From the IMG/VR virus record IMGVR_UViG_3300002520_000024, positions 1 through 64,000 of that record: a stretch of 64,000 nucleotides of DNA; one strand, 5' to 3'. Numbering within the stretch: the first letter of the stretch is position 1; the number at the start of each line of letters is the position of its first letter. Made by a program: the position numbers and the translations under genes. Positions 8,857 to 57,749 of this stretch are shown here, one piece after another. The notes beneath the pieces are model-generated. The model had not been told where the DNA came from, searched no databases, and saw nothing but the letters and a program-made list of their open reading frames with translations. The DNA comes from a virus.

Positions 8857-9207
8857 TCAATGGTGGCGGCTGGGGTTGAATCCGTGGGCGGCTTGGTGCA
8901 GGTATCCGCTGACCAGGATCTTGATCGGGGCGGTAAGGTTCGATCCCTCCAGGTTCAACAGTGAGCGGGCAGCCACCAGGGCAGCACGGCAGCGGCGGCC
9001 ACTACTGCGAGCCACGGCAGGCAGCAGGGCGGCCACTCTCCAGCAACCTCTAACACTGAGGCGGCGGGCTTGTGCCCAGCCTGCCCGCAATGTATCCGCC
9101 CAGGTGGCGAACAAGGGGCGGCCACCAGCGGCCACCACGGCGCGATCCTTCTTCCAGATCGCTTGTGCAATGCGCATTGCATCAGGGCCGTAATTGTGTT
9201 TTTTCAT
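8857..9207 (-). CDS. hypothetical protein
   Basis: Internal ATG 9207 (MKKHNYG) preceded by AAGGAAA. The longer ORF version would run through the promoter. Confidence 0.6.
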   Translation of the reverse strand: MKKHNYGPDAMRIAQAIWKKDRAVVAAGGRPLFATWADTLRAGWAQARRLSVRGCWRVAALLPAVARSSGRRCRAALVAARSLLNLEGSNLTAPIKILVSGYLHQAAHGFNPSRHH

Positions 9208-9258
9208 GGTCTGATTTCCTTTTCTGCTTGGCATTATTGCCGGGTTACTACCGGGTAA

Positions 9259-9301
9259 ATAGTAGGTGACAAGGAATAAAAAAACCGTGAGCAGGGTCAC
9301 G
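9259..9301 (-). promoter_or_regulatory. class-II-type promoter with CRP-like dyad
   Basis: Dyad CGTGAGCAGGGTCACG at 9286-9301. -10 TACTAT (minus strand) at 9259-9264, 29 nt from the dyad centre. Confidence 0.6.
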
Positions 9302-9325
9302 GTTTTGATTATTACTGTTTAGGTG

Positions 9326-9787
9326 CTATACGCCGCTTTTTTGCAGCATAGACCGCGCTTTAAGCAAGGCCGCAATAATTGCCTCCTGCTCTGCGATATA
9401 TTCCATTATCCAGCCATCAAGGGCGCGGCATGCTTCATCAGCAAAGGCCGTTATTGCAGCCTTGCCAGCGTCCTCTAATATGTAGCCATGGCAAGAGGCA
9501 GCAGCCCCCAGGCTAGAAACCTCGAACTTGTCGAAGTGCAACCCTTTAATTGAGGTTGTCGGAATAGATGATCCGGCGTCAATATACCAATCATCCTTTA
9601 GGCTTTGTTTCATCTTGTAGGGGTATTTGTTCAGGCTACCATAAATAGCCAAGCCCCCTTTCTCCGCGCTCACTGTTACCGTGGGGTGTCCGTGTGATAG
9701 TCTGACCCGTGCGGTAACAGTAACCAGGCTTTTGCCATTGTTCGCAGCGATAAAGTCAATCGCCTCTTGCTTGCGTGAATCACTCAT
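9326..9787 (-). CDS. hypothetical protein
   Basis: 153-aa ORF. Conserved leader CAAGGAAAGAGGG. Confidence 0.7.
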   Translation of the reverse strand: MSDSRKQEAIDFIAANNGKSLVTVTARVRLSHGHPTVTVSAEKGGLAIYGSLNKYPYKMKQSLKDDWYIDAGSSIPTTSIKGLHFDKFEVSSLGAAASCHGYILEDAGKAAITAFADEACRALDGWIMEYIAEQEAIIAALLKARSMLQKSGV

Positions 9788-9823
9788 TTAATAACCCTCT
9801 TTCCTTGCGCTGTTGATAGGGTA

Positions 9824-9866
9824 AATATAGCCAAGGTCCAAATAAAAAACCGTGAGCAGTGTCACG
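9824..9866 (-). promoter_or_regulatory. class-II-type promoter with CRP-like dyad
   Basis: Dyad CGTGAGCAGTGTCACG at 9851-9866. -10 TATATT at 9824-9829, 29 nt from the centre. Confidence 0.65.
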
Positions 9867-9887
9867 GTTTTAATAAAGGCTTTTTAT

Positions 9888-10148
9888 TTAGGAGATCTGT
9901 TGGACTGTTATTTTAACAGTGCGTGATCCGCCCCAGCGCCCGACTACGTTAGCCGAAAATTCGACACCATCAGCAACGGGGGCCATGTTGCTAATACTGT
10001 AATTTTTGCCAAAGTTGGTACGGATTGCGCTATTGGCGGCGGCCAGGTGATCCAGGGGCTCCCCCTTCTCTTTGACGCTGACGGAAGCAGATCCACGGGG
10101 CGCACCGGATGCGGACAGATTCACGATCTTGACTACAAATTTTTTCAT
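9888..10148 (-). CDS. hypothetical protein
   Basis: 86-aa ORF. RBS AAGGAAG. Confidence 0.65.
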   Translation of the reverse strand: MKKFVVKIVNLSASGAPRGSASVSVKEKGEPLDHLAAANSAIRTNFGKNYSISNMAPVADGVEFSANVVGRWGGSRTVKITVQQIS

Positions 10149-10163
10149 TTTGCGGACTTCCTT

Positions 10164-10328
10164 TTATTGGGTAATTACGGCCACCAGGGCGGCGGCTTTG
10201 ACGTTCAACCAGTGCCCCAAAATCGGGGCACTCTTCCAGATTATCAGACCATAGGCGGCAATCAGTCCCACTTTCTTTGATCCGGTGATCAGCTTGGCCG
10301 CCTTGGTTGCCTTTTCATCTACAAACAC
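10164..10328 (-). CDS. possible small membrane protein (54 aa, GTG start)
   Basis: AGGTGG lies 5 nt before the GTG. Hydrophobic segment GLIAAYGLIIW...AAALVAVI. Fills the gap between two genes. Confidence 0.3.
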   Translation of the reverse strand: MFVDEKATKAAKLITGSKKVGLIAAYGLIIWKSAPILGHWLNVKAAALVAVITQ

Positions 10329-10338
10329 GGCTGCCACC

Positions 10339-11241
10339 TTAGAAAGTAAATGCCCAGTCTTTGGCCTTGGCGAACTTCTCCAGCTCTGCCCGCATATCCG
10401 CCACCAGGGCGGGGACGCGCTCGATCAACCCGTCTACGTCTTGCAGTTGTTCAAGGGTTGCATCAGGCCAGGCGGCACAACTACGGGCAGCGTCAAGATC
10501 CGGCGCCTTGCCCTTGCTGTAGTCGCTGGGGATCTTGGCAACCACTACCCCCCAGCGTTTAGCAGCGGCGGCGAACTCCCGCGCCTTGCTTTCTGAGTTA
10601 AAGGGCGCTTTGTGCCAGTCATACGGCGGCAAGGGATAGCCCTCGAAAGTGTAGCGGGTATAATCTCGCCCTTCTGATTTATGGGTTACCGGAACAACGG
10701 CCAGGCTAGGCCACTGATCAACAGGCTTATCATGCCAGGTCAAGACCCAGGCGCGAAAGCCATCAGATTCAGCGGACATTGTGATCGGGCAATCGTCAAA
10801 CACGAAGAAATGATCCCAGCTTGACGGCTCGCCAGCGCGGCGGCCCCAGCAATCCCGATCACCAGCGTGATAGATGGCATTGCCTACGGCGTGAGAGAAG
10901 ATAGAGCCCAAGCCGATAAGGTGGAACCGGATCAGCGGCGTAACCTCTGGGAACACTTTCATCAGAATTTCATGGATACAGCCACAAGTATCAGGATCGC
11001 TTTCCTTCATCATCTTGCCAGCAAGCCAGGCGCTACCCGTAATCCCCATTGAGTTATAGCCGTTTTTACAGTGGTCGTCCCAGCGGATAGTACAATCAAC
11101 GCGGCGGAAGGTTTCGCCTTTTACTTTAAAATGGCCGTCCTTGCGCAGAGTCAGGCTTTGGCTATTGGTGCGGGTGGACATAGCCAAAATATCAGCCTTG
11201 ATTTGATCAGCGCGGGCTTGCTGCTCTTGGGTAAATGCCAT
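10339..11241 (-). CDS. hypothetical protein (300 aa)
   Basis: Long ORF. Leader CAAGGAAAGAG. Confidence 0.75.
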   Translation of the reverse strand: MAFTQEQQARADQIKADILAMSTRTNSQSLTLRKDGHFKVKGETFRRVDCTIRWDDHCKNGYNSMGITGSAWLAGKMMKESDPDTCGCIHEILMKVFPEVTPLIRFHLIGLGSIFSHAVGNAIYHAGDRDCWGRRAGEPSSWDHFFVFDDCPITMSAESDGFRAWVLTWHDKPVDQWPSLAVVPVTHKSEGRDYTRYTFEGYPLPPYDWHKAPFNSESKAREFAAAAKRWGVVVAKIPSDYSKGKAPDLDAARSCAAWPDATLEQLQDVDGLIERVPALVADMRAELEKFAKAKDWAFTF

Positions 11242-11289
11242 GATATCTCTTTCCTTGTGTTAGCTGGGGCGGCTGCCCCAGTGGTTTAA

Positions 11290-11331
11290 ATATTACTCGA
11301 ACCAGGATTAAAAACAGTGATCAATGTCTCA
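11290..11331 (-). promoter_or_regulatory. class-II-type promoter with CRP-like dyad
   Basis: Dyad AGTGATCAATGTCTCA at 11316-11331. -10 TAATAT at 11290-11295, 28 nt from the centre. Confidence 0.55.
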
Positions 11332-11712
11332 CTCTTTGACTCTGGCTGTTACATAGATTTCTACAGTCTCAGGCAAATTATCAGCGCGGCCCTTGCGAAA
11401 GTTGTTAGCGTCATACTGAAAAGTAAATTCCAGGTCTTCGGCTGCCACTGGTGCATATTTACCAGATCCCAACTTCTGGACAAATAAACCCTTGTAATCC
11501 TCCAGTGGATAGCAGCGGCGTTTAATAAGGCTTTCACTGGGCACACCTTCCAGATAATAGGATCCATCGCCTGTGCCAAAATTGCTCGGGAAAATACCAT
11601 CTTGATCCCGTGCAAGGTATTCAAGGCTTACAGGTTCACCGACCAGTAACCGCCCCTCCCCTTCTATTGCCTGAAAAACCGCGTAAACTATTGCGCCTTT
11701 GTAAAGTTCCAT
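11329..11712 (-). CDS. hypothetical protein
   Basis: 127-aa ORF. Leader ACGGAAAGAGGG. Confidence 0.7.
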   Translation of the reverse strand: MELYKGAIVYAVFQAIEGEGRLLVGEPVSLEYLARDQDGIFPSNFGTGDGSYYLEGVPSESLIKRRCYPLEDYKGLFVQKLGSGKYAPVAAEDLEFTFQYDANNFRKGRADNLPETVEIYVTARVKE

Positions 11713-11750
11713 TGCTTGACCCTCTTTCCGTGTGGTGTATTGATACTTGC

Positions 11751-11792
11751 AGTATAGCGACCACTATTTAAATAACAGTGATCGCCGTCACA
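11751..11792 (-). promoter_or_regulatory. class-II-type promoter with CRP-like dyad
   Basis: Dyad AGTGATCGCCGTCACA at 11777-11792. -10 TATACT at 11751-11756, 28 nt from the centre. Confidence 0.6.
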
Positions 11793-11794
11793 AA

Positions 11795-12373
11795 TTAAAT
11801 AATCAGATCATGCTTGGTGCAGAAAGCCAAAATATCGGGGTTTTCGTGCAGGTATGCGCGGATCTGTTTGTAATAGTCGCCCTTCTTATATTGCGGGCTT
11901 TCTTCGGTTACAGCGAAATCACAGTATATCAGGTAAAGCAGGCTTGATATAACTTTCGGGTGCATATCATCAAAGCACTCGACAGATTCGCGGACTTGAT
12001 CCCACAGCTCCAGGGCAACGGCTTGCCGATCTGCCCCGACCATGACCGGATCCCATGGGGTATAATGGGCACGGTCGCCACAGGCGCCAGGCAGGCGGCT
12101 TGTGTTGAATTGCTGGACGGCGTGATCCGGTGCATAGTCGCACACATTAACCAGGATAGGCCTTGCCCCTTTTGCGTACAGCTCGCGGCCCAGGTGTTGC
12201 CCAATCACGCTGATAGCTTCAACGTGAGCCCCAAGGCCCGCCGCCTTGTCTTCTGCCCAGGCGGACGCTTGCCCAAGGCTATAGGCCAAGGCAATATAAA
12301 CCTCTGCCCGCCCGTTGCTATCGTGGCGGTGGACGGTCTTGTAATACTGGGGGATCTGGTATTCGGTTTTCAT
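11795..12373 (-). CDS. hypothetical protein
   Basis: ATG 12373 (MKTEYQ) preceded by CAAGGAAAGAGGG. Confidence 0.7.
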   Translation of the reverse strand: MKTEYQIPQYYKTVHRHDSNGRAEVYIALAYSLGQASAWAEDKAAGLGAHVEAISVIGQHLGRELYAKGARPILVNVCDYAPDHAVQQFNTSRLPGACGDRAHYTPWDPVMVGADRQAVALELWDQVRESVECFDDMHPKVISSLLYLIYCDFAVTEESPQYKKGDYYKQIRAYLHENPDILAFCTKHDLII

Positions 12374-12394
12374 GGTGTTGCCCTCTTTCCTTGC

Positions 12395-12423
12395 GGCGGC
12401 CCCGCCGGATATCGGGGGGCCTA
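12395..12423 (-). repeat. 29-nt GC-rich hairpin at the 5' end of a transcript (copy 1)
   Basis: GGCGGCCCCGCCGGATATCGGGGGGCCTA is identical to 14178-14206. It starts a few nt after the predicted TSS. Confidence 0.6.
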
Positions 12424-12432
12424 CTGGTGTTG

Positions 12433-12475
12433 ATACTGGCACAAGCCAGGGAATAAAACAGTGATCACTGTCTCA
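12433..12475 (-). promoter_or_regulatory. class-II-type promoter with CRP-like dyad
   Basis: Dyad AGTGATCACTGTCTCA at 12460-12475. -10 CAGTAT at 12433-12438, 29 nt from the centre. Confidence 0.5.
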
Positions 12476-12718
12476 CTTTTCAGCCTTGAAGTGATTCAGC
12501 GCGGATTCGAGCAGATCGGCCGCCTCCTGCTCTGTGCACACCAAGCGGTGATCCCATGCAAGGTGCAACAGGTCGGTGATCAGATCTTTGGTAGCATCGA
12601 TCTGGTCTTGGCGCGGCATGCTATCGGGCCAGCCCTTGGGGTTGCGCTTGGCATAGTGCATTTTCAAGGCTTCACGTGCCGCACGGGCGCGGGCTTGATT
12701 CTCGGTTTCGGTTGTCAT
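12473..12718 (-). CDS. hypothetical protein
   Basis: 81-aa ORF. Leader CAAGGAAAGAGG. Confidence 0.65.
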   Translation of the reverse strand: MTTETENQARARAAREALKMHYAKRNPKGWPDSMPRQDQIDATKDLITDLLHLAWDHRLVCTEQEAADLLESALNHFKAEK

Positions 12719-12752
12719 GTGGTGCCTCTTTCCTTGTGTTGTTGACGGGTTA

Positions 12753-12795
12753 AATGTAGCCCACGCCGTAGAAAATAACCGTGACGCCGGTCACA
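12753..12795 (-). promoter_or_regulatory. class-II-type promoter with CRP-like dyad
   Basis: Dyad CGTGACGCCGGTCACA at 12780-12795. -10 TACATT at 12753-12758, 29 nt from the centre. Confidence 0.65.
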
Positions 12796-13114
12796 TATTC
12801 AAAAGGTCGATTGCTTGTTTTTTCAGGTCAAGGCGGTGGCTGTGGCATACCCGCCCGATCTGCTTAATAGCCAACAGCTGGGCGGGGCAGCGTACCCCCA
12901 GGCACAAGGCCAGCAGAGCGGGGGAGCGCCACCATAAACGGGGGGCGGCCCCGTAGACCATAGACCCCCAGCGATCGCCTATCGGGTCGAAAACAATCGC
13001 ATTGCAGCCAAGGGGGGAAACCTGCCCGCTACTGTCAATAGACAGGTAACCCAGGGCAGGCCCCCCGCTTGGGGTGATATCGGGGATCACCATTGGCCCC
13101 CGCTTGGCTACCAT
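12791..13114 (-). CDS. hypothetical protein
   Basis: 107-aa ORF. Start uncertain: ATG 13114 or ATG 13093. Confidence 0.5.
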   Translation of the reverse strand: MVAKRGPMVIPDITPSGGPALGYLSIDSSGQVSPLGCNAIVFDPIGDRWGSMVYGAAPRLWWRSPALLALCLGVRCPAQLLAIKQIGRVCHSHRLDLKKQAIDLLNM

Positions 13115-13410
13115 CCCGTGTGCATGCCGTAAGCTGCCCAGGATGGCAGGCTATCCGGTAATGTGGCATTCTCCAGCCATTGGATCATGGCGGCCTTGGT
13201 GCGCTGCTCCCGTGGGATATTGCGGGGGGTTCGCCAGTAGGGGTAATCTTCATCCTGTCGCCAGTCGCCTGATTTTGGGGCAGCGACTACCATAAATTCG
13301 GCGCTGGCCTGTGATACGCTAAAATCAATGTCATCGTACTTTTCCCAAAGGCCGGACGTGTCCACGTCTTTGATCTGCTCTAATGCCTTCTCAAAATCAA
13401 CACAGCACAA
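13108..13410 (-). CDS. hypothetical protein
   Basis: 100-aa ORF with a TTG start. Overlaps the upstream gene. Confidence 0.5.
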   Translation of the reverse strand: MCCVDFEKALEQIKDVDTSGLWEKYDDIDFSVSQASAEFMVVAAPKSGDWRQDEDYPYWRTPRNIPREQRTKAAMIQWLENATLPDSLPSWAAYGMHTGW

Positions 13411-13903
13411 AAGGCGCCCGCCAGGCAGAGAAGGGGATAACCACTAACCCGATCAGGTACTCCAGCGGCGGGGCGCCGTTAAAGCAGATTGCGCCGTTTT
13501 GATCAGACCCATCATATGATTCGTCATACTCCCAGCCGCCGGATTCATCACCGATTATCTCGGATGGCACGTCAAAAATTAATACTACCTTGTGGCAGTC
13601 GCTCATAGAGTAGGCCGCCGCGATATCAGCGGATCCGAAAGCCTGCTTGATTGTATGGGCTAGGCTTTCGGCTCGCTGCTCTTCGGGGAGGTCATCTAGA
13701 TCCGCGTCCTCCTCTTCCCAGTCTGACGTATCAATGTGCCCGAACCGGATCAGCTCTTCTTCGCTCCAGGCGTAGAAATAACCATCATTATCGGGGCAGA
13801 GCCAGGGCGAGCCGCTGATCACGCTGCGCTTGTCTGCATCAGCCTTGGCGCTTGCGATGATAGCGGGGATCAGTTTGCTGGTGGTGCCATGAGTCAAGAT
13901 CAT
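13397..13903 (-). CDS. hypothetical acidic protein
   Basis: 168-aa ORF. Leader CAAGGAAAGAGAAA. Acidic run DWEEEDADLDDLPEE. Confidence 0.7.
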   Translation of the reverse strand: MILTHGTTSKLIPAIIASAKADADKRSVISGSPWLCPDNDGYFYAWSEEELIRFGHIDTSDWEEEDADLDDLPEEQRAESLAHTIKQAFGSADIAAAYSMSDCHKVVLIFDVPSEIIGDESGGWEYDESYDGSDQNGAICFNGAPPLEYLIGLVVIPFSAWRAPFVLC

Positions 13904-13930
13904 TTTCTCTTTCCTTGTGATCGTGGGTGA

Positions 13931-14161
13931 TTAGGGTTGTTCGGTGTGGGTTTTGCTTTCGGTGATCAGCATACCGATCACCCCAACCAGCAGGCAGAAG
14001 ATCGCTGTCGCGCCAGTCAGCGCCGCTTCCCCTGTGGTGATAAGCCCGAGATTGTTACCAAAGATAACCATCAGGGCAGCCACAGAGCCAACGGCAGCAC
14101 ATACGGCGCAAAATACAAACAGGGCATTGGTTGCGGGGTGGTTGTTGTTCGGCTTTTCCAT
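13931..14161 (-). CDS. small membrane protein (2 TM)
   Basis: ATG 14161 preceded by GGAGAA. Hydrophobic segments FVFCAVCAAVGSVAALMVIF and ATAIFCLLVGVIGMLI. Confidence 0.6.
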   Translation of the reverse strand: MEKPNNNHPATNALFVFCAVCAAVGSVAALMVIFGNNLGLITTGEAALTGATAIFCLLVGVIGMLITESKTHTEQP

Positions 14162-14177
14162 CTGTCTATTCTCCATT

Positions 14178-14206
14178 GGCGGCCCCGCCGGATATCGGGG
14201 GGCCTA
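14178..14206 (-). repeat. 29-nt GC-rich hairpin at the 5' end of a transcript (copy 2)
   Basis: Identical to 12395-12423. Confidence 0.6.
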
Positions 14207-14218
14207 GTTGATGGGGTA

Positions 14219-14261
14219 ACTATCGCACAGGTTTTACAGGTTGTCCGTGACAGCGATTACA
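14219..14261 (-). promoter_or_regulatory. class-II-type promoter with CRP-like dyad (inside the 3' end of the upstream gene)
   Basis: Dyad CGTGACAGCGATTACA at 14246-14261. -10 GATAGT at 14219-14224, 29 nt from the centre. Confidence 0.5.
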
Positions 14262-14884
14262 GAACTGTTTGGAGTGTTGACAGAGATTACCCCCCAGGTA
14301 TTGAGGCAACCAGCATCAGCCAGGGCCTTAGAGAAGGCGGCGGGGGTAAACAGTCTAGCCCGCCCGTTAGGCCCCTCTGTAGCCTCAATCTCTGCCAGGG
14401 CGTAGGAACTGGGGAAATTGACAGTCACACAGACTAGGCCATAAGGGCGGATAATCCGGCGGTCACTAGCCACCAAGAGATCGGATCCGCAATCGCTGAT
14501 ATCGTAGAGGTTTTCTAACAGCCGATTGAAGATGTCCTGTTTGCATTCTGCAAAGCAGAACCAGCAATCGATCGGCTTGCTACGGGCGCCAAGCTCCCGA
14601 TCCGCATAGACGGCCATCACTCCAACCTGACGGGCCATTGTGTAATATGTTTCTGCCAGCAATTCCAGGCAGTGGGCGGGCAGGTGCGCCAGCGGAAAGC
14701 CCTTTTCACCCTCAACCAGGGCGGAGATCTCCATGCCGTCCAGCTGGTTTTTCTTGATAGCGTCGAGGTTACGGTAAGCCAGGGCTTTGATGCGCTCGAT
14801 CATCAAAATGTGATCTTGCAGCTGGTCGATCGGCATGTTAGCCAGAATGTTAAAATGCGCTTGAGTATCTTTGATTTCGATCAT
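14234..14884 (-). CDS. hypothetical protein
   Basis: 216-aa ORF. Leader CAAGGAAAGAGG. Confidence 0.7.
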   Translation of the reverse strand: MIEIKDTQAHFNILANMPIDQLQDHILMIERIKALAYRNLDAIKKNQLDGMEISALVEGEKGFPLAHLPAHCLELLAETYYTMARQVGVMAVYADRELGARSKPIDCWFCFAECKQDIFNRLLENLYDISDCGSDLLVASDRRIIRPYGLVCVTVNFPSSYALAEIEATEGPNGRARLFTPAAFSKALADAGCLNTWGVISVNTPNSSVIAVTDNL

Positions 14885-14954
14885 GATAGTCGCCTCTTTC
14901 CTTGTGTTGAATCCCCGCCCAGTAGCGGGGGAGTTGTCTTATTCGTCTTCGCTT

Positions 14955-15458
14955 TTAGCTGTGGCGGGGGTACGCATCATTGAGAAAACCGATCATTGCC
15001 TCTTCGGCCTCCTCGTTATTCAGATCCATAGCGTCCAGCTCTTCCGGCGTATAGATGGCAATGGCGTAGCCCTGTTTTCTGATCTCACGGCTAAGGGCGA
15101 TCAGCGCATCGTACAAGGTAGGGTGATCATCAGCGCCACTTTCTGGGGCCTCATTGCTGGGGCAGTCGTCAGCAGGGCACTTGTCCAGGTATTCACCGGA
15201 GAAGACACGACCACACTGATCACAGTGGCAACCGTCAAAGCGGATCCAGCCCTTGGCGGTGATCTCTTTCAAAGCAGAAGTGAAACCGTTCACCCGCCAA
15301 AACTTGTTAACCTGCATCACCCCATCAGCATCAACCAGGGCCAGCGCCAGGGCTACGGGCTTTTCGCCCGCTTCGGTTTTTGGCGTGACGTGGCCCAGGT
15401 ATGCAACCTTCCCGTTTTTGATAAATCCGGTTTGCTCATTCTTAGGCTTGATGATCAT
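14955..15458 (-). CDS. hypothetical protein with Cys-rich ribbon
   Basis: ATG 15458 (MIIKPK) preceded by CAAGGAAAGAGAAA. CHCDQC...CPADDC motif. Confidence 0.7.
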   Translation of the reverse strand: MIIKPKNEQTGFIKNGKVAYLGHVTPKTEAGEKPVALALALVDADGVMQVNKFWRVNGFTSALKEITAKGWIRFDGCHCDQCGRVFSGEYLDKCPADDCPSNEAPESGADDHPTLYDALIALSREIRKQGYAIAIYTPEELDAMDLNNEEAEEAMIGFLNDAYPRHS

Positions 15459-15507
15459 TTTCTCTTTCCTTGGGTTAGGGGCTCGCCTCATTGCGGGCCA
15501 TGGTTAG

Positions 15508-15549
15508 ATAATAGCGGGGTCACAGAATAAAACAGCGACCCCGATCACA
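15508..15549 (-). promoter_or_regulatory. class-II-type promoter with CRP-like dyad
   Basis: Dyad AGCGACCCCGATCACA at 15534-15549. -10 TATTAT at 15508-15513, 28 nt from the centre. Confidence 0.6.
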
Positions 15550-15552
15550 CTT

Positions 15553-15912
15553 TTAAATATTCGCCAGGGCTTGGGCTAATGCCTTGCGCTGGTAGTCCGG
15601 CACAGCGGCGACAGCCTCCCCCATCGCATCAAGGAAATCATCAGGCAGGCCGTAGCCTGTTTCTGTCTTGTGCAGATAGGCCCAGGATCGGCAGAGCACA
15701 GAGCCAAAGTGATCCAGCACGTCCCGAACCAGGGCGGGGCGGGTGTGTTTATGCTCACTGGCAAAACCCAGCTCGCCCAGGTGTTGGAGCATAGCCCCCG
15801 CCGTTTGGTACTGGTAGGATTCGACAATATCCAGGTCAGCCGTCAGGCTCTCCAAAACCGAGCCCTCTACAACCTCGATCACCCAGTCGTAAACAATGCG
15901 CTTGGCCATCAT
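15553..15912 (-). CDS. hypothetical protein
   Basis: ATG 15912 overlaps the upstream stop (ATGA). Confidence 0.6.
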   Translation of the reverse strand: MMAKRIVYDWVIEVVEGSVLESLTADLDIVESYQYQTAGAMLQHLGELGFASEHKHTRPALVRDVLDHFGSVLCRSWAYLHKTETGYGLPDDFLDAMGEAVAAVPDYQRKALAQALANI

Positions 15913-16310
15913 TCGCCCCCTTGAGCCCGATAGTGATCCCCCAGGGTTTGAAGCATAGCGCGGGCGCCTGCTTTCCACTCCTCGCACTCTTGCTCATAGG
16001 GCACAGCCTCAACCTTGAAATAAACCTCTGCCCCCCTGTGGTTGTAGAGCGACACTAAATCAGCCGCTTCCTGTGCACCATAGCGGCGGGCTTTCATTGG
16101 CACGGGGTCGAAAGTGGTAGTGCCCCGCAACTTGACAAGGTAGCCGGATCGGTAGGCTTGCCCGACTGCATCGCTTGAGGTGTCAGGGTTCGCTATTACG
16201 CGGATCAAGTAACCGCGATCACCCTCGCCTAGCTCTTGATAGTGGTGCAGGGTAACGGCGGCTTGCAGGTTTTGCATGAGATCCGCCAAATACAGATCAA
16301 AGGCTTTCAT
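15909..16310 (-). CDS. hypothetical protein
   Basis: 133-aa ORF. Leader CAAGGAAAGAGAAG. First gene of the leftward cluster. Confidence 0.7.
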   Translation of the reverse strand: MKAFDLYLADLMQNLQAAVTLHHYQELGEGDRGYLIRVIANPDTSSDAVGQAYRSGYLVKLRGTTTFDPVPMKARRYGAQEAADLVSLYNHRGAEVYFKVEAVPYEQECEEWKAGARAMLQTLGDHYRAQGGE

Positions 16311-16341
16311 CTTCTCTTTCCTTGTTGGTTACTGTTGGGCC

Positions 16342-16384
16342 ACTATAGCGGCCATCTTTTAAAAAAACCGTGCTGGTTGTCACA
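16342..16384 (-). promoter_or_regulatory. class-II-type promoter with CRP-like dyad
   Basis: Dyad CGTGCTGGTTGTCACA at 16369-16384. -10 TATAGT at 16342-16347, 29 nt from the centre. Confidence 0.65.
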
Positions 16385-16395
16385 CTTTTCGATAA

Positions 16396-16440
16396 AGGCC
16401 TTTTTTTCAGAAAAAGAGCTGGTTTTTTCCACAAAAAAAA
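16396..16440. repeat. right copy of the ~45-bp imperfect direct repeat flanking the early cluster
   Basis: AGGCC-T7-CAG-A5-GAGCTGGTTTTTTCCACAAAAAAAA aligns with 7567-7613. Confidence 0.5.
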
Positions 16441-16581
16441 TTGCATGGCGGATCTAGGGATTCTCTCCTCTCCTCCCCCTCCCCCCATCCCCTGGCGCCC
16501 CCTCCCTGGCGTGGATTCGGGGGACTACCCAAGACAGGGGGCCAGCATCACCAGGATCGGCGAACTGGTCGGATCTCTGTT

Positions 16582-17368
16582 TGGCATGGCGCTTGCATGG
16601 GTCGGGGGGCGACAGGCAAGAGCTGTGCCAAGTTCGCGCCATGCAAAAGGAAAGGCGAGCCAGAAAATCGGTATGCAAAGCCCGTGCCAAAATGGCGGGC
16701 TACCCCTCGCAGAAAAAACGGGGGCATGCAAGAGACGTGCCAACATAGGCGGATCCCTCCCTAGACATTTTAGGGACACAAACCCAAGCAAGGGCCGTGC
16801 CAGTTTTTTACTTTTCTTGCCAGGTAGCCAAAAAAACCGCCAGCCCAGCAAAAAGCGTGCCAAGACGCAACGCCGAAAAAAGGGCGAGCATCCACAGCAA
16901 ATAACATGCCAAGATCACCATGATCCGGCCTCCATTAGATCGGTTTCCTAGTGCCGATAACCCTAGCCCAATGGCAAGAAAAAACCAGTGATCGGCGTCA
17001 CATTTTCACCCTGTAAAGGCTAAAAACTTTTGCCGTCAAAAACCGTGCCAACAATGCACCGTTTTTGTGATTCACGTCAAATACTTAACACACAAGGAAA
17101 AACGGGGGCCGTACCATGCAAAAACGGGGCCAGATCACCCCCTATAGAGCAGGATCTCCAACGTATGCAAACCCCGTGCCAACCCATGCCGAAAATCGGG
17201 GCCGACTGGCCGATCATAGTAGTGCATCTAGTAAGAGATCTGATCCCTTTGCGGTAGCAAATTACGTGCCACAAATAAAACTTTCCTCCTCCAGATCGCT
17301 TGTCCCGTGCGCCGCTTCCTTGCACCATGAAAATAATAACGCGCCTTCTCCATGCAAGGCCCGTGCCA
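16582..17368. repeat. tandem array of sigma54 -24/-12 consensus-like elements (iteron-like)
   Basis: Eleven minus-strand copies start at 16615, 16674, 16727, 16787, 16847, 16896, 17035, 17117, 17166, 17256 and 17353 (16 nt each). One plus-strand copy lies at 16582-16597. No credible ORF in the region. Confidence 0.7.
16960..17002 (-). promoter_or_regulatory. possible class-II-type promoter inside the repeat array
   Basis: Dyad AGTGATCGGCGTCACA at 16987-17002. Weak -10 TAGGGT at 16960-16965, 29 nt from the centre. Confidence 0.4.
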
Positions 17369-17399
17369 CGTCACGGATTTTCTACGCCGTGAAAAACTT

Positions 17400-17461
17400 T
17401 GTGACGCCGCTCACACTTTTTTACTTTGTCGCCTTGCGCCTTCTTTTTTCTTGCCTATAGT
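17400..17461 (+). promoter_or_regulatory. sigma70-like promoter with upstream CRP-like dyad (class-I-like position)
   Basis: Dyad TGTGACGCCGCTCACA at 17400-17415. TTGCGC (17434-17439), 16-nt spacer, TATAGT (17456-17461). Dyad centre is at about -60. Confidence 0.45.
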
Positions 17462-17511
17462 CAAAGGGCACTAAGGCGAACCCGCCACAACCACGAAAAG
17501 GAAATCTGACC

Positions 17512-52863: not shown

Positions 52864-53617
52864 GTTTCTGGGTTCGTTTTTGACCATCGCCCTCTCCGTG
52901 GTGATCACTGGCGGGGCACTGCTGGGTATCGCCACTCTCAACGGTGATCCGGCTATCCTCGCCGCCTCCAATGTGGCCCCCGTAATATCGGTGATCTTGA
53001 TCTCGGCCTGGTGCCTGTGCCTGATTGTCGGGGTGGCTGCCACCTTTAAACCTGAATGGCTCTGGAGCTTCTGCCAGGTCGCGGTGAAACTGAAGAAGAT
53101 GCAGGACGATTATGACTCGCTGCTCTCCAGAACCTCGGCCCAGTACGCCAGCTTGGAAGACCAGTGCAATCGCCATAAGGCATTGCGCCTTGAGGCCGAG
53201 GCCAGCCGCAACGCTATTGAGGCTAAGCTGCGAGACGCTGAAGAATCGCTGTATCTGCTGCAGGCCCCTAAGAAAACTTTTGATGCACCGCAGAAAGCTG
53301 AGCCCGTTAATCAGCACGACCAGGTGGTTCGTGGCTTGGGTTACACGCTGGAGTCGCTGCTTTGGTCTGCCCGTGGCGGTAACGAGAATAAGGCTCCTAT
53401 CGAGATCCATGTGATCTGCCGCGGGGCTGGGCACAGTATCTACCTGGGTCAACCAATGCTCTCCAGTGCACTGCAGGAGCTGCAGGACGGTTTGGTTGCG
53501 GCTCAGCAAACATTCGACGCCTGCAACTTTGCCCAGCACGTCACCAACTGTGTGACCACCGCCAAGAACGCCGGTGACCTTGCCGAGCGGATTGCCAAAG
53601 CCACAGTAGAGGAGTGA
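52856..53617 (+). CDS. membrane-anchored coiled-coil protein
   Basis: Two N-terminal TM segments, then a coiled coil. Confidence 0.6.
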   Translation: MSKFLGSFLTIALSVVITGGALLGIATLNGDPAILAASNVAPVISVILISAWCLCLIVGVAATFKPEWLWSFCQVAVKLKKMQDDYDSLLSRTSAQYASLEDQCNRHKALRLEAEASRNAIEAKLRDAEESLYLLQAPKKTFDAPQKAEPVNQHDQVVRGLGYTLESLLWSARGGNENKAPIEIHVICRGAGHSIYLGQPMLSSALQELQDGLVAAQQTFDACNFAQHVTNCVTTAKNAGDLAERIAKATVEE

Positions 53618-53622
53618 TCGCC

Positions 53623-54138
53623 ATGGCTAAAATCAACACCAATGTAATTTACACCAGCAAGATCCTGAAGAACGTCCACGGTGGTCTGCAGTACATGCGC
53701 CCTGGTGATGCCGGGTTCGACATCCGTGCGGTGTTCGACTTGGATACAAAGGGCGTCCCAGCCGTACAGGTAACCGAGGGGCGCCAGGTTCACGCTGTGA
53801 CCTGCACCATCGAGCCTGGGGAGCAGGTGACTTTCCCTACCGGCTTCAAGATCGAGGTGCCCGAGGGTTACATGCTTGCGGTTTACCCACGTGGTGGGAA
53901 AGGTTGCGAGGGTCTGGTGCTCGGTAATCTGGTGGGCGTCATTGACCATCAGTACCAGGGGGAGGTGTTTGTCTGCCTCTGGAACCGCAGCTTCAACCCG
54001 ATCACCATCACGGCGTTTGACCGTGTGGCGCAGGGTGTGCTGCAGCCGGTAACCCAGGCTGTGTTCAAAGAGGTGGAGAAATTCACCGCACCGTCTGCCC
54101 GTGGCGAAGGCAAGCTCAACAGCAGCGGTGAGGCATAA
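53623..54138 (+). CDS. dut: dUTPase (trimeric type)
   Basis: Motifs GDAGFDIRA and GVIDHQYQGEV, plus a C-terminal RGEG motif. RBS GAGGAG. Confidence 0.85.
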   Translation: MAKINTNVIYTSKILKNVHGGLQYMRPGDAGFDIRAVFDLDTKGVPAVQVTEGRQVHAVTCTIEPGEQVTFPTGFKIEVPEGYMLAVYPRGGKGCEGLVLGNLVGVIDHQYQGEVFVCLWNRSFNPITITAFDRVAQGVLQPVTQAVFKEVEKFTAPSARGEGKLNSSGEA

Positions 54139-54413
54139 TGTCGGCCCGTAAACCGGCGCCATTTTGGGGCACCTGCTATGGAGGGCGGGTGCATCTCATT
54201 ATGTCGCGCAGCACTGATAACCGGGTGGTGGCCCACGTCACAGGGTGTGGGGCAACTGTGTTCGGGTCTGGGCGGCACCCCAACGTAGTGCCAGCAAGCG
54301 GCAACCAGGAAAACGGGGCAATCTGTCCGGAGTGCGTGGCCAAGGCCAGAGAGCTGGGGCTGACTGTCATAGGCCGGGTGAACGTCCATGGGGCAAGCGG
54401 CTACCCCTATTGA
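54138..54413 (+). CDS. zinc-ribbon protein
   Basis: 91-aa ORF. GTCYGG...CG...CPEC. Confidence 0.5.
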   Translation: MSARKPAPFWGTCYGGRVHLIMSRSTDNRVVAHVTGCGATVFGSGRHPNVVPASGNQENGAICPECVAKARELGLTVIGRVNVHGASGYPY

Positions 54414-54458: not shown

Positions 54459-54923
54459 ATGGCACTGAATGTACGGATACCGGTAGGCGGTGATTTATTC
54501 ATCGGGCCACACCATTTCACGATAGAGCACGGCGGTGATGACTGCTTCTTATTGATGGAGCGCGACGCCCTCAATAGCAGTGTCAACCTGGCCGTTACCC
54601 AGAACAGATCAGCACACCTTCAAATAGGCGATGATGTCGCCGTCATCACTCTTGCCAATGGCAGCAACTCCTACCGCGTAGCCCTCAGTATCGACGCCCC
54701 AAAAAGCATCTCTATTCTGAGAGGTGATCTGTATCGCAAAACCGGTGGGATTTTTGTTGTATCCTCGGCAACACGAGAAAGTATCTCCAGTGGACACAAG
54801 GTAGTCAAAAGCGTCGAGCAGCTGATCGAGCTGGCCAGCCCCTATCGCGGGCGCAATGGCTGGGTCGCGTTGGATGGCTTGATGATCGAGATTGCCGGTA
54901 CCGAGATCGTCAGCATCAAGTAA
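54459..54923 (+). CDS. CsrA/RsmA-like RNA-binding domain protein (possible tandem repeat)
   Basis: LAVTQNRSAHLQIGDDVAVITLANGSNSYRVALSIDAPKSISILRGDLYRK aligns by eye with E. coli CsrA [49 protein letters not shown]. The N-terminal ~40 aa form a weaker second copy. Confidence 0.6.
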   Translation: MALNVRIPVGGDLFIGPHHFTIEHGGDDCFLLMERDALNSSVNLAVTQNRSAHLQIGDDVAVITLANGSNSYRVALSIDAPKSISILRGDLYRKTGGIFVVSSATRESISSGHKVVKSVEQLIELASPYRGRNGWVALDGLMIEIAGTEIVSIK

Positions 54924-54933
54924 GGAGTTCGAC

Positions 54934-56058
54934 ATGATAAGAATCGGGGAAGGCCCCGCGATTCAAGCGTCGCCCGTAGACCCACTGACAGCCCTGGGCC
55001 TACAGCCGATCAGCACAGTTGCGGCAGCTGCACCAGCGGTTGAACCAGTTGAACCAGAAGGCCCCCTGCAAGGGTTGGCTATCGGTGGTATCCCTCTGCC
55101 GCCGCTTAAAAAGAAACGTGCACCCGCGAAGCGCAAGCCCAAGGAGAAAGCTGAGGAGGTCTATACCGGCCCGCCCCTGCTGACTGAGGAGCTTAACGAC
55201 CCGCATGCTCGGCGAGTGCCTGAGATACCGGTGGCGCCGGCAACACCTCCTACGCAGCGAATCCTCATGCCACATAACCACCAACTGGTTATCGTGACAG
55301 ACGCCCGCACCAACGAGATTATGGACACCATTGGCAATATCATGGGGGCCGCGGTGCGCGACGGGCTGCAGGTGTTTACCCACCACCTCGACGCCAAAGG
55401 GGAAAAGCCGCTACCCCAGTTTTTCCCAGGCGTCACCTATCTGATCATGGGCAAAACAGCCTATGACCGGATCAGTCGTGAGTGTGGGGCGCTGGCAAAG
55501 AACAAGTCGATCTCTGCATACCGGCACACTGAGGTGGCCTTCAACGGTGCCGTGCTGCTGACCACCCATAGCCCCTATGGTGGCACCAAGGATTACCCGA
55601 CCCTGGTAGATATCCAGCTCGATACCCAAGCAGCCGTGCGCCGGGCCTTCACCGGTACCATAGCCCCAGGTGGCCTTGGCCAGTACGAGTGGGTCGACGA
55701 TTTTGCCCCGCTCTGCCACGCCATTCACCATGAGTACCTGCGCACCGGCCAACCTGTTCGCGTGTCATGGGACTTGGAGTGCGTGGGCTTGGACGAGCAC
55801 GACCCATTGGCCTGGATTGTCTCCATCTTCTTCTCGATGAAGGTTGGCTTCTCCACCGGCATGGCGTTTAAGTGGCACCTCGACCAACCGTGCCGAGCAG
55901 ACACCGCGATGTTCCAGGGTGGCAAAGCTGCGACATGGGACAAGCTGGTGCTGATCTGGGAACAGATAAACTGGATCCTAAACACGCCAATGGTTTGGTC
56001 TGTCGGTGCCAACCTGAAATGGAGTGCACCAACCACAGGTTCGACACCACGCTGGTAG
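54934..56058 (+). CDS. family-A DNA polymerase, N-terminal part (UDG-like region plus Exo I)
   Basis: RBS AAGGAG. VSWDLECVGLDEHD is the Exo I DxE motif. The ORF ends in an out-of-frame tail after VGANLKW. Confidence 0.7.
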   Translation: MIRIGEGPAIQASPVDPLTALGLQPISTVAAAAPAVEPVEPEGPLQGLAIGGIPLPPLKKKRAPAKRKPKEKAEEVYTGPPLLTEELNDPHARRVPEIPVAPATPPTQRILMPHNHQLVIVTDARTNEIMDTIGNIMGAAVRDGLQVFTHHLDAKGEKPLPQFFPGVTYLIMGKTAYDRISRECGALAKNKSISAYRHTEVAFNGAVLLTTHSPYGGTKDYPTLVDIQLDTQAAVRRAFTGTIAPGGLGQYEWVDDFAPLCHAIHHEYLRTGQPVRVSWDLECVGLDEHDPLAWIVSIFFSMKVGFSTGMAFKWHLDQPCRADTAMFQGGKAATWDKLVLIWEQINWILNTPMVWSVGANLKWSAPTTGSTPRW

Positions 56059-57749
56059 GCGGCCTGCTGGACGAGAACAGATCCAACAGCCTGAACAACC
56101 ACGCGAAGATCTACGCGCCGGAGATAGGTGGCTACGACGACTACTTCAACAACACCGTGGATAAGGGCCGCATGGATTTGGCGCTCGCCGCCAACCCAGA
56201 CGAGTTCAAGATTTACGCCGGAGGCGATACGGATGCGGCGCTGAGGATTTATTACCCACTGCGCGACCAGCTCTCCTACAACGAGCGGTTGACCAACCTC
56301 TACATCAACCTGGTTCACCCTGCGTCGGATTTCTTCTGCCGGCTGGAGCAGGTTGGTGTGCTGGTTGATCAGGACGAGTACGCCCGGCTCGGTGTCGAGC
56401 TGCAGGAGGAGATTGCAAGATTGCAGTCTGAGGCGGACGCGCTGTTCCCGATGCGACTGAGGGCCAAGCATAAGGGTGACACCAAGCTGACAAAAAGCGC
56501 GGTGATCGCCGATTACATGTTCAGTCAGCTGGGGCTTGGCCTGAGACCGTTGGAGTTCACGGCGAAGACCAAGAACACACCGGTACCCAAGCCGAGCACC
56601 GAGTACACGCACCTGGTCAAGTTCAAGGGGGTGCACCCTGACGTCGCCAAGTTCTTGGAGATCTACAAGGCCTATAACTCCGCGTCGAAGACATTGACCA
56701 CCTACGTCACCGGTTTCCTTTCGCACCTTCGTAGCGACGGGCGGTTCCACGCCACCTATCTGCTGCACAAGTCGGACAAGGGGGGTGACACTGGTGAGAC
56801 GGGGGGCGGTACCGTAACAGGGCGCCTGGCCTGTACTGGTCCTGCCATGCAGACCGTGCCGAGCAAGACCACGTGGGCCAAGAAGTTGCGTAAGTGCTTC
56901 CCGGCGCCGCCTGGCTACAAGGCAGTCGAGATCGACTACTCCCAAGGTGAGCTTCGTGTTGCTGCGGTGGTGGCTGGTGTCCGCGCCATGATCGACAGCT
57001 ACAACAACAACGAGGACCTGCACGTCTTGGCGGGGGCTCTCGCTGCAGGGATGAACCCCGAGGAAGTGCGCAGCTGGAAAGATTGCGGCAACCCAGAGCT
57101 GGAGAAGAAGTACAAGTTCGTGCGACAGAACGGCAAGGCTGCAAACTTCGGCCTGCTGTACGGCATGAGCGCCGAAGGCTACATGAACTACGCCCGCGAC
57201 TCCTATGGTGTGGAGATGACGCTGGACGAGGCCATCTACGCCCGCCAGGCATTCTTCGACTTGTACCCAGAGCTGCTGGACTGGCACGCCGAGTACCAGG
57301 CGAAGGCCGCCCGCGATGGCGTGATCGTCAGCCCGCTGGGCCGTGTCCGCCACCTGCCTTTCATCAACTCGCGGGATAACTCGCTGCGCAGCCAGTCCGA
57401 GCGCCAGGCTATCAACTCGCCGATCCAGGCCACGCTGTCCGACATGACCGTGCTTTCTGGTATCGAGTTTGAGAATAACTACGGGCGGTTCGGGCGGGAT
57501 AACCCGGTGCAGTTCTTCATGATGGTGCACGACGCGCTCTATGCGTACATCAAAGAGGATGACATCGATATCTGGGTACCGCGCATTGTGGAGATCATGG
57601 AGAATTTACCGTTGGCTGAGAAGTTCGGTTGGTACAATATCCCCTTGAAATTTGCAGCCGAGCCAGAGGCCGGGTCAAATCTGGCGGACAAGCACGAGCT
57701 GCACTTCACGCCGGAGCACCTGCGCACTGTCCTGAAATGGGCGGCTTAA
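56019..57749 (+). CDS. family-A DNA polymerase, C-terminal part (rest of exo domain plus polymerase)
   Basis: RFDTTLVGGLLDE (Exo II region), DYSQGELRV (motif A), RQNGKAANFGLLYGMS (motif B) and MMVHDALY (motif C). This frame is open from 55872. Confidence 0.8.
   Translation: MECTNHRFDTTLVGGLLDENRSNSLNNHAKIYAPEIGGYDDYFNNTVDKGRMDLALAANPDEFKIYAGGDTDAALRIYYPLRDQLSYNERLTNLYINLVHPASDFFCRLEQVGVLVDQDEYARLGVELQEEIARLQSEADALFPMRLRAKHKGDTKLTKSAVIADYMFSQLGLGLRPLEFTAKTKNTPVPKPSTEYTHLVKFKGVHPDVAKFLEIYKAYNSASKTLTTYVTGFLSHLRSDGRFHATYLLHKSDKGGDTGETGGGTVTGRLACTGPAMQTVPSKTTWAKKLRKCFPAPPGYKAVEIDYSQGELRVAAVVAGVRAMIDSYNNNEDLHVLAGALAAGMNPEEVRSWKDCGNPELEKKYKFVRQNGKAANFGLLYGMSAEGYMNYARDSYGVEMTLDEAIYARQAFFDLYPELLDWHAEYQAKAARDGVIVSPLGRVRHLPFINSRDNSLRSQSERQAINSPIQATLSDMTVLSGIEFENNYGRFGRDNPVQFFMMVHDALYAYIKEDDIDIWVPRIVEIMENLPLAEKFGWYNIPLKFAAEPEAGSNLADKHELHFTPEHLRTVLKWAA

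Follow-up and report, generated by a model that had tools for sequence, protein, structure and literature searches.

CsrA is a textbook RNA regulator that relies on a symmetric dimer, whose two faces bridge two GGA sites. In its sheets, β2-β4 of one subunit are flanked by β1 and β5 of the partner, and the RNA face places β1 of one subunit beside β5 of the other, with L4 and R44 being critical (PMC7652899). Phage-encoded CsrA/RsmA homologues have been described in Burkholderia phages DC1 and CSP3 and in the Pseudomonas aeruginosa phage F116 (Campa et al. 2021, PMC8450108). Another, PTXU04_00028, was included in CRISPRi-ART, a 2025 study according to which the role of phage CsrA homologues in infection had not been tested before (PMC11879866). 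Here we analyze a gene at positions 54459 to 54923 (plus strand) of a 64,000-nucleotide stretch of viral DNA, IMG/VR record IMGVR_UViG_3300002520_000024 (positions 1 to 64,000; hereafter, the window). We conclude, with a probability of about 55%, that its product is an asymmetric CsrA-fold protein made from a single chain, with one RNA face, that acts as a post-transcriptional RNA binder.

The gene, the parts of the protein it encodes and its junction with the next gene are as follows (copies A and B are the two CsrA-like halves, as predicted; AF2, AlphaFold2).

54459..54923, plus strand: complete gene of the single-chain CsrA-like protein, 154 codons plus TAA (open reading frame listing and sequence)
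54459..54563, plus strand: residues 1-35, putative shortened CsrA-like copy A, with β1-β4 and no β5 or helix (AF2, hhalign)
54564..54575, plus strand: residues 36-39, short, poorly conserved turn that links β4 (copy A) with β1 (copy B) (AF2; mean pairwise identity 0.18)
54576..54743, plus strand: residues 40-95, CsrA-like copy B in full, from β1 to β5 and into the helix (Pfam, NCBIfam, PDB chains, AF2)
54708..54740, plus strand: residues 84-94 (ISILRGDLYRK), the most conserved block, corresponding to CsrA β5 and helix start, V40-R50 (clade alignment)
54744..54920, plus strand: residues 96-154, C-terminal α/β module (AF2; conserved in both clades)
54921..54936, plus strand: stop codon TAA, in overlap with the Shine-Dalgarno sequence (TAAGGAG) of the DNA polymerase gene, and the ATG of the latter (54934) (sequence)

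The open reading frame (ORF) starts with ATG, and its 154-residue translation is identical to the sequence quoted in an earlier note on this DNA, made by a model from the letters alone. The same protein, without any change, is encoded on three further public assemblies.

Copy B was matched to CsrA by several independent libraries. The Pfam family CsrA (PF02599) aligned with residues 53-94 over model positions 11-50 of 53 (28.2 bits, E = 1.9e-6), a significant match that exceeds the gathering cutoff of 27 bits by a marginal 1.2 bits. The NCBIfam CsrA models TIGR00202 and NF002469 matched residues 46-94 (E = 8.6e-7 and 1.1e-5), well short of the equivalog cutoffs (25.5 versus 70.1 bits and 28.9 versus 73 bits). 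A PHROG family named CsrA-like regulator matched at 9.4e-5, and a phmmer search against solved structures aligned CsrA/RsmE chains with residues 44-94 (E of about 3e-3). In these alignments I84, I86, L91 and Y92 fall on CsrA V40, V42, I47 and Y48 and are thus retained as equivalents, as is R88 (codon AGA, 54720-54722), which falls on R44. The strands predicted by AF2 for this copy (40-47, 53-56, 60-64, 73-79 and 86-88, followed by a helix at 89-95) reproduce the β1-β5-α order of CsrA.

Within its family the window protein resembles CsrA most closely, and the family was therefore tested as a whole. Profile-profile comparison of the middle region of the family with CsrA gave z = 8.3 relative to 2000 column shuffles, and hhalign returned a probability of 75-90% over β4-β5-helix. 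A second, Vibrio-phage clade of the family matched CsrA on its own (P = 2.9e-6, 47 columns), and the protein of one of its phages, PG28, matched the NCBIfam CsrA models alone. Since several libraries agree on one region and one register, the similarity to CsrA goes beyond chance. Judged by sequence, the homology of copy B to CsrA is real but distant, and the protein belongs to the CsrA superfamily without being a CsrA orthologue. The earlier note had read residues ~44-94 as CsrA-like, with the Arg needed for RNA binding among them, had counted about 60 residues behind this part and had placed the gene between those for dUTPase and DNA polymerase. Each of these statements held: the Pfam match passes its threshold, if narrowly, and the PDB chains cover the same residues; the Arg is R88, kept in 6/6 members of the window clade; residues 96-154 follow; and the dUTPase (53614-54138) and polymerase (start 54934) flank the gene, together with a 91-aa ORF (54138-54413) that the note had not mentioned.

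The case for copy A is mainly structural, its sequence signal being weak. The AF2 model, a monomer prediction from the six-member alignment of the window clade (predicted local distance difference test score, pLDDT, 75; predicted template modelling score, pTM, 0.56), places strands at residues 2-8, 12-15, 18-26 and 29-35, with a pLDDT of 71-84 in the N-terminal half. Pfam returned no match for this half. Using hhalign, we aligned it with a CsrA profile of 54 sequences (51 diverse CsrAs plus three references) and obtained an in-register match from residue 3 on L2 through residue 35 on G33, so that L3 and V5 of copy A correspond to CsrA L2 and L4. The P value was 0.005 for the window clade and 0.0013 for both clades combined; these scores were reached by 6 and 1 of 300 column shuffles, respectively (empirical p ≈ 0.007-0.02), and the score of a reversed control lay at the null mean. 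An apparent internal repeat between the N-terminal half and the middle domain of the family (z = 3.1) was rejected, the traceback being a 4-residue GD(L/I/V)Y out of structural register.

As a positive control for the fold we modelled P0008, a natural tandem CsrA-CsrA protein, which AF2 folds with confidence into a pseudo-dimer of one chain (pLDDT 83.5, pTM 0.77). Its first four strands (2-7, 11-14, 18-26 and 29-35) almost coincide with those of the window protein. In Foldseek searches of BFVD, the window model matched two 160-aa phage proteins over their full length (E = 2.7e-9 and 6.9e-8) and several 88-114-aa phage proteins over ~93 columns, with TM scores of 0.56-0.77 on the target; one of these is named 'Carbon storage regulator'. 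Eight BFVD targets were common to the window and P0008 models: A0A6G5YEX0 (88 aa), A0A6J5RUQ1 (114 aa, 'Carbon storage regulator'), A0A6G5YD98 (96 aa), A0A7S5US24 (93 aa), A0A6J7WXS8 (106 aa), A0A2H4PHU8 (81 aa), A0A6G8R4L0 and A0A2I7RQV3. The last, a 160-aa protein, matches the P0008 model with probability 1.0 (TMq 0.61, root-mean-square deviation 2.2 Å) and the window model over its full length as well. We could not show that A0A6J5RUQ1 equals the tandem protein P0008.

These comparisons support the view that residues 1-95 adopt the fold of a CsrA dimer in a single, asymmetric chain. In CsrA structures β1 lies next to the partner's β4, so that a four-residue turn from β4 of copy A into β1 of copy B is geometrically natural; the hairpin we infer here would fit the CsrA sheet. 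The suspicion of a degenerate second copy in residues ~1-40, voiced in the earlier note, is therefore supported, with the correction that only β1-β4 are present: the in-register match, the AF2 model and the positive-control fold search speak for it, while the Pfam, BLASTP and BLOSUM tests do not. Likewise, the predicted structure agrees with a single-chain pseudo-dimer, albeit an asymmetric one in which copy A is devoid of β5 and helix. To call it structurally novel was an overstatement, given that natural full tandem CsrA-CsrA proteins exist and that BFVD contains phage proteins of 81-114 aa with the same fold. The small phage proteins, mostly unnamed, include those sized above and A0A2I7QSD7 (85 aa). 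Their models superpose on the single-chain tandem CsrA with TM scores of up to 0.85 on the target, and single-chain CsrA-dimer-like folds may therefore be common among phages.

The asymmetry has a direct consequence for RNA binding. Because copy A has no β5, a face formed by β1 of copy B and β5 of copy A is impossible, and only β1 of copy A with β5 and helix of copy B can exist; the predicted fold thus has at most one canonical RNA face, versus two in the symmetric CsrA homodimer. Conservation follows this asymmetry. Mean identity is 0.46 in β1 of copy A and 0.8-0.9 in β5 and helix of copy B, versus 0.23 in β1 of copy B. L3 is invariant in 16/16 sequences. Position 5 (CsrA L4) is V or I in the window clade and Leu in 10/10 Vibrio members, V46 being the L4 counterpart in copy B. 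Within the window clade, residues 86, 88, 89, 90, 91, 92 and 93 are invariant. On this alignment, the sole RNA face that the predicted fold allows is the conserved one.

In the model that we favor, copy A (β1-β4), the tight turn and the complete copy B would build both interdigitated sheets from one chain. The single face, with β1 of copy A beside β5 and helix of copy B, would bind one single-stranded GGA-type RNA site, and the protein would exert post-transcriptional control, probably by blocking ribosome-binding sites. Oligomerization or a second contact may be the contribution of the C-terminal module. AF2 predicts in it a β-bridge (100-101), two helices (103-110 and 119-129) and a three-stranded sheet (133-138, 141-146 and 149-153), and F99, V101, S103 and R106 are conserved. 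It has no similarity to CsrA, and Pfam and PDB sequence searches returned no relatives; the only full-length fold matches to the model were the two 160-aa BFVD proteins. Substitution of residues 99-110 for the missing β5 and helix of copy A found no support in the sequence.

With HMMER we scanned 1.84 billion representatives exhaustively, and P0003, P0005 and P0007 emerged as full-length relatives (E = 1e-16 to 1.6e-8). Profile searches added P0014 and P0015, and IMG/VR one further locus. These relatives (P0003, P0005, P0007, P0014 and P0015) have 154-162 aa and 27-37% identity to the window protein. All are metagenomic, the gene being conserved in six such phages, and the contigs of P0001, P0003, P0007, a P0016 cluster member and L007 span 82-95 kb. 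Gene order is the same in each: dUTPase, (small ORF), CsrA-like gene, PolA (the family-A DNA polymerase), portal. Nucleotide and tblastn searches with the window protein found no match in the phage collection, the metagenome scan found none, and IMG/VR yielded only the extra locus. The long multi-stretch phmmer matches P0002, P0004, P0006 and P0009-P0012 were dropped as repetitive proteins with 'GDLYRK'-like repeats.

Judged by PolA, the closest phages in culture (41-45% identity) are Vibrio siphophages of ~80 kb that form the SIO-2/VHS1/J26/PG28 group. They encode a protein of 157-170 aa that can be aligned with the window family from end to end (143 columns; hhalign probability 90%, E = 1.6e-6). 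Its gene belongs to the same block and lies upstream of PolA and portal, with a distance of three or four genes to PolA. About 28 Vibrio-phage records hold a family member, nearly all annotated 'hypothetical'. The CsrA connection had already been annotated once, for J26, whose protein (PP534163.1) is labelled 'sRNA-binding carbon storage regulator CsrA' (PMC12038007). Conserved synteny, deep divergence and the fact that both clades match CsrA together argue that the CsrA-like gene is an old core gene of this phage lineage rather than one newly picked up from a host.

Two observations concern the Vibrio relatives. KarBoss has the PolA closest to that of the window (44.9% identity), and tblastn with the J26 CsrA-like protein gave no match in it. 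A 161-aa gene directly upstream of its PolA (L010 5411-5896) proved unrelated, and the CsrA-like family may have been lost or replaced in this phage. Directly upstream of the CsrA-like gene of the Vibrio clade lies a gene of ~690 aa (J26, L008 1-1958; PG28, L011 252-2309), annotated variously as 'pyruvate phosphate dikinase', 'kinase' or hypothetical, and highlighted in the J26 paper as an auxiliary metabolic gene (PMC12038007). PG28 has a separate annotated terminase large subunit, which makes the ~690-aa gene a distinct one.

In the window itself, the genes upstream encode a large MJ0330_N-type ATPase, a HAD/PNKP phosphatase, thymidylate kinase, the dUTPase and the 91-aa ORF, and those downstream the family-A DNA polymerase, portal, S78 protease and capsid; this is the neighborhood of a tailed phage. 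The CsrA-like and polymerase genes are tightly coupled: the stop codon of one overlaps the Shine-Dalgarno sequence of the other, and in the gene call of L001, an assembly of the same phage, PolA begins 11 nt past that stop. Window G+C content is ~57%, and no tRNAs were found in the window.

The 91-aa ORF (plus strand) contains scattered cysteines (C..C…C..CPEC), which suggests a small zinc-ribbon protein; L001, L004 and L007, though not L005, have a gene of 83-91 aa at this site. A break near 56020 leaves the window PolA (54934-57749) as two ORFs that overlap, 54892..56058 and 55872..57749. The window sequence lacks 34 nt, TTCGATAAGCGGTGGATTGCCAAAAAGTGGAACA, that are present in L001 and L002, both of the same phage and both with an intact 949-aa PolA. 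The deletion, bordered by a short GAAA(T)/GAACA(T) microhomology, reflects either an artefact of assembly or a variant that is defective.

We then considered which RNAs such a protein could recognize. A near-identical 12-mer, ACAAGGAAAGAG, precedes each of nine consecutive minus-strand early genes with no assigned function. Its copies, candidate RNA targets, are located as follows.

within 9797..16325, minus strand: nine copies of [A/G/C]CA[A/C]GGAAAGAG, candidate RNA targets, each 3-9 nt upstream of ATG
9797-9808, 11247-58, 11722-33, 12383-94 and 12726-37, minus strand: leader 12-mer, copies 1-5
13907-18, 14894-905, 15462-73 and 16314-25, minus strand: leader 12-mer, copies 6-9

With up to 2 mismatches the 12-mer has 14 matches, versus 4.2 ± 1.9 expected, and 0/100 shuffles reach 14; CAAGGAAAGAG is the sole 11-mer that occurs 5 or more times in the 64-kb window, and no other element is repeated as often there as the 12-mer. 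The element is absent from the plus-strand genes of the window. Its ACA-A-GGA core fits the CsrA consensus RUACARGGAUGU, obtained by in vitro selection (SELEX; PMC7652899). GC-rich hairpins or stem-loops that resemble terminators lie ahead of many copies; 9000-17500 holds 22 terminator-like sites, versus 9.7 expected. The early protein m11241 had no relative in IMG/VR.

A comparable arrangement exists in PG28 (MT735630.2; L019+L020), where a different GGA-centred 12-mer, AGTCAGGAGACG, occurs in nine exact copies 3-7 nt upstream of start codons, versus 0-2 copies in shuffles.

16740, 23275, 30346, 31635, 48359, 50288, 52124, 57652 and 75361 (PG28): copies of AGTCAGGAGACG before start codons, after intergenic gaps

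PG28 also holds 16-19 copies of a palindromic element, TGCAATTAA(T/C)TGCA, which resembles a DNA operator. SIO-2, whose protein is without an R44 equivalent, likewise has a repeated element of the ribosome-binding-site type; as such elements occur despite the lost Arg, they are no specific evidence for a link between protein and operator. The nine ACAAGGAAAGAG leaders are thus, speculatively, candidate targets and provide a testable lead rather than evidence. The stronger proposal, that a monovalent CsrA-fold binder with an effector module is a dedicated translational shut-off factor of the early genes and recognizes ACAAGGAAAGAG as its private leader, we regard as doubtful. If it were true, related phages, such as PG28 with AGTCAGGAGACG, would carry co-evolved pairs of protein and operator.

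Several results weigh against a single-chain RNA binder. The R44 equivalent is T, G or S in 9/10 Vibrio-clade members, Arg being kept in PG28 only, and CsrA-type RNA binding is consequently no property of the whole superfamily. Basic residues are missing at CsrA positions 6-7 from β1 of both copies (I/V and P/A in copy A; Q/I/P/F/E and N/Y/G/E in copy B); in CsrA, according to the alanine-scanning literature, these two residues add to the positive RNA surface. The CsrA consensus motifs CANGGANG and ACANGGA show no genome-wide enrichment, and no conserved hairpin loop presents the GGA of the 12-mer. The homology itself is unevenly detected: the window protein is the sole clade member to pass Pfam CsrA, only 2/6 members match at E ≤ 1, and the PHROG CsrA families are unmatched by the other five. 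The six-member family hidden Markov model retrieved no CsrA from the PDB; its only match, uvsY (E = 0.02), was to the His-tag/thrombin-site leader of that entry and is spurious. As for the fold, BLASTP of the N-terminal half found no similarity to E. coli CsrA or to the CsrA part of the same protein, and a BLOSUM profile test against CsrA gave p = 0.18, although the best alignment kept the register of β1-β4. Six sequences underlie the AF2 model, whose strand pairings we derived from the order of the strands and the overlap of the fold searches. A Foldseek search of the PDB gave nothing at E ≤ 0.001, with generic β-sandwiches only (TM ~0.2); since one CsrA chain makes up just half of an interdigitated fold, this null result carries no information.

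Part of this pattern would also be expected of a CsrA-derived scaffold that no longer binds RNA and has been reused in the replication/nucleotide-metabolism module, for instance as a protein adaptor or a DNA-binding accessory of the polymerase, with the conserved RGDLYRK block serving the new interaction. Nine of ten Vibrio homologues have lost the R44 equivalent and kept the protein and its position, the counterparts of R6 and R7 are missing in both copies, and most members escape CsrA models. The gene is fixed directly upstream of PolA with overlapping stop and Shine-Dalgarno signals, and the lack of motif enrichment is accompanied by the lack of a decoy small RNA (sRNA), as the window contains no Rfam family and no CsrB-like GGA-dense decoy region. 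Yet the positions conserved in the window clade are those with which CsrA binds RNA (L2, L4, V40, V42, R44 and I47), and β5 and helix are the most conserved part. PG28, from the other clade, carries 'CRIEVTAPDEVCVAREEAYQ' and retains 'VAREEAYQ', and the distance of three or four genes in the Vibrio clade means that linkage to the polymerase is not universal. Taken together, we consider such a scaffold possible, though on the unlikely side.

A second alternative is a host-directed mimic of CsrA that binds host CsrA targets or sRNAs of the CsrB/RsmY type and rewires motility, carbon storage, biofilm formation or CRISPR-Cas expression in the host. Retention of the L4 and R44 equivalents would suit this role; RsmA/CsrA homologues are widespread in phages, and manipulation of the host, its CRISPR-Cas systems included, has been proposed for them (PMC8450108), and a phage csrA homologue contributes to plaque size (PMC11879866). 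The protein, however, scores 28.9 bits where the equivalog cutoff is 73, has one face and would be unable to bridge two sites as CsrA does, and is encoded by a syntenic core gene that has diverged deeply and was not acquired recently. We judge mimicry to be quite unlikely. For the same reasons, and because the reported phage homologues, unlike it, are described as 'highly similar' to bacterial CsrA, a role intrinsic to the phage is more plausible than mimicry of host CsrA.

Residues 40-95 might also be an ordinary homodimeric CsrA domain with unrelated extensions, the second copy being an artefact of predicting a monomer. The prediction was indeed run on a monomer with a shallow alignment, residues 1-39 are weakly similar to CsrA, and CsrA proteins with terminal extensions exist (PMC7366521). 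This would leave unexplained that the match of the N-terminal half is in register and beats 294/300 and 299/300 shuffles, that its strands occupy the positions seen in a genuine tandem CsrA, and that its pLDDT reaches 71-84. Moreover, the N-terminal motif with the L2 and L4 equivalents is among the best conserved parts in both clades, and independent BFVD monomer models of 81-114-aa phage proteins show the same two-lobed fold; an ordinary homodimer is therefore very improbable. Finally, a chance resemblance unrelated to CsrA, to which the Pfam margin of 1.2 bits and the many relatives missed by CsrA models could point, can practically be set aside given several independent libraries that agree on region and register, the family z of 8.3, the independent match of the second clade and the fold-search overlap with a real tandem CsrA.

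If a single-chain RNA binder is what this gene encodes, it would show how far the CsrA fold can be simplified, as a natural version with one chain and one face, and would give mechanistic and synthetic biology a monovalent CsrA scaffold that is ready for use. Its status as a syntenic core gene of a marine siphophage lineage speaks against host mimicry and in favor of a part in the expression of the phage's own genes; the nine early-gene leaders are concrete candidate targets, open to tests in vitro. The assignment to this family of ~28 'hypothetical' proteins of cultured Vibrio phages (SIO-2, VHS1, PG28 and others) makes experiments possible in existing phage-host systems. We found no description of a single-chain or tandem CsrA in the literature searched. 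Phage CsrA/RsmA homologues as such are known; the asymmetric one-faced design in a single chain, with an added module, appears from the model to be new.

How does this design compare with described systems? Phage T4 RegA, a small protein, shuts off a set of early mRNAs by binding where their translation starts. Were the shut-off circuit real, it would work like RegA on a CsrA scaffold; the analogy is functional only, with no homology proposed, and hangs on the conjectural link to the nine ACAAGGAAAGAG leaders. RsmN retains the same RNA-binding sandwich despite a topological rearrangement, as a symmetric homodimer with its helix placed internally. It is thus a precedent for a rearranged CsrA fold, although, unlike the window protein, it is symmetric and not single-chain. 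Titles cited in PMC8545117 likewise present RsmN/RsmF of P. aeruginosa as a rearranged CsrA fold.

The reported phage CsrA/RsmA homologues share with the window protein a phage-borne CsrA-superfamily domain and a role in infection that has been suggested or measured. They are, however, 'highly similar' to bacterial CsrA and single-domain (PMC8450108), whereas the window protein is a highly diverged predicted pseudo-dimer from a syntenic core gene. Closer to it are the proteins of SIO-2 (VPEG_00064), VHS1, PG28 and J26, full-length homologues from the same gene block with the same three-part layout. They differ in their identity of ~16-21%, their shorter N-terminal half and the loss of the R44 equivalent in all but PG28; neither of the two tested, J26 and SIO-2, has a Pfam match, and the single-chain architecture is absent from the J26 paper (PMC12038007). 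The two 160-aa BFVD matches are probably the SIO-2 and Nahant 1.215 members of this clade, judging by their equal length.

Natural tandem CsrA-CsrA proteins (P0008, P0013 and P0017-P0020) are metagenomic, have 114-192 aa and are in some cases labelled 'carbon storage regulator'; P0017 lies on an 854-kb contig and P0013 on a 169-kb contig. Like the window protein, they carry the halves of the dimer in one polypeptide, and their models retrieve the same viral structures. Both of their copies are complete and match CsrA strongly (P0008 reaches 127 bits with TIGR00202, in two stretches), so that two RNA faces are expected, whereas the window protein has one matched stretch and a truncated copy A that is nearly unrecognizable by sequence.

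The comparison with CsrA/RsmA/RsmE (PF02599; 1Y00, 2BTI, 2JPP) summarizes the design. Copy B has their β1-β5-α order, the A-P-K turn, the equivalents of V40, V42, R44, I47 and Y48 and a β1 of the L2/L4 type, and the sandwich predicted for the window protein is of the same kind. Unlike them, the window protein has no basic residues at positions 6-7, stays far below the equivalog cutoffs and has an extra C-terminal α/β module. Bacterial CsrA assembles two subunits of ~61 aa into a dimer with two identical RNA faces, whereas this 154-aa protein would form both halves from one chain and, with copy A devoid of β5 and helix, present a single face.

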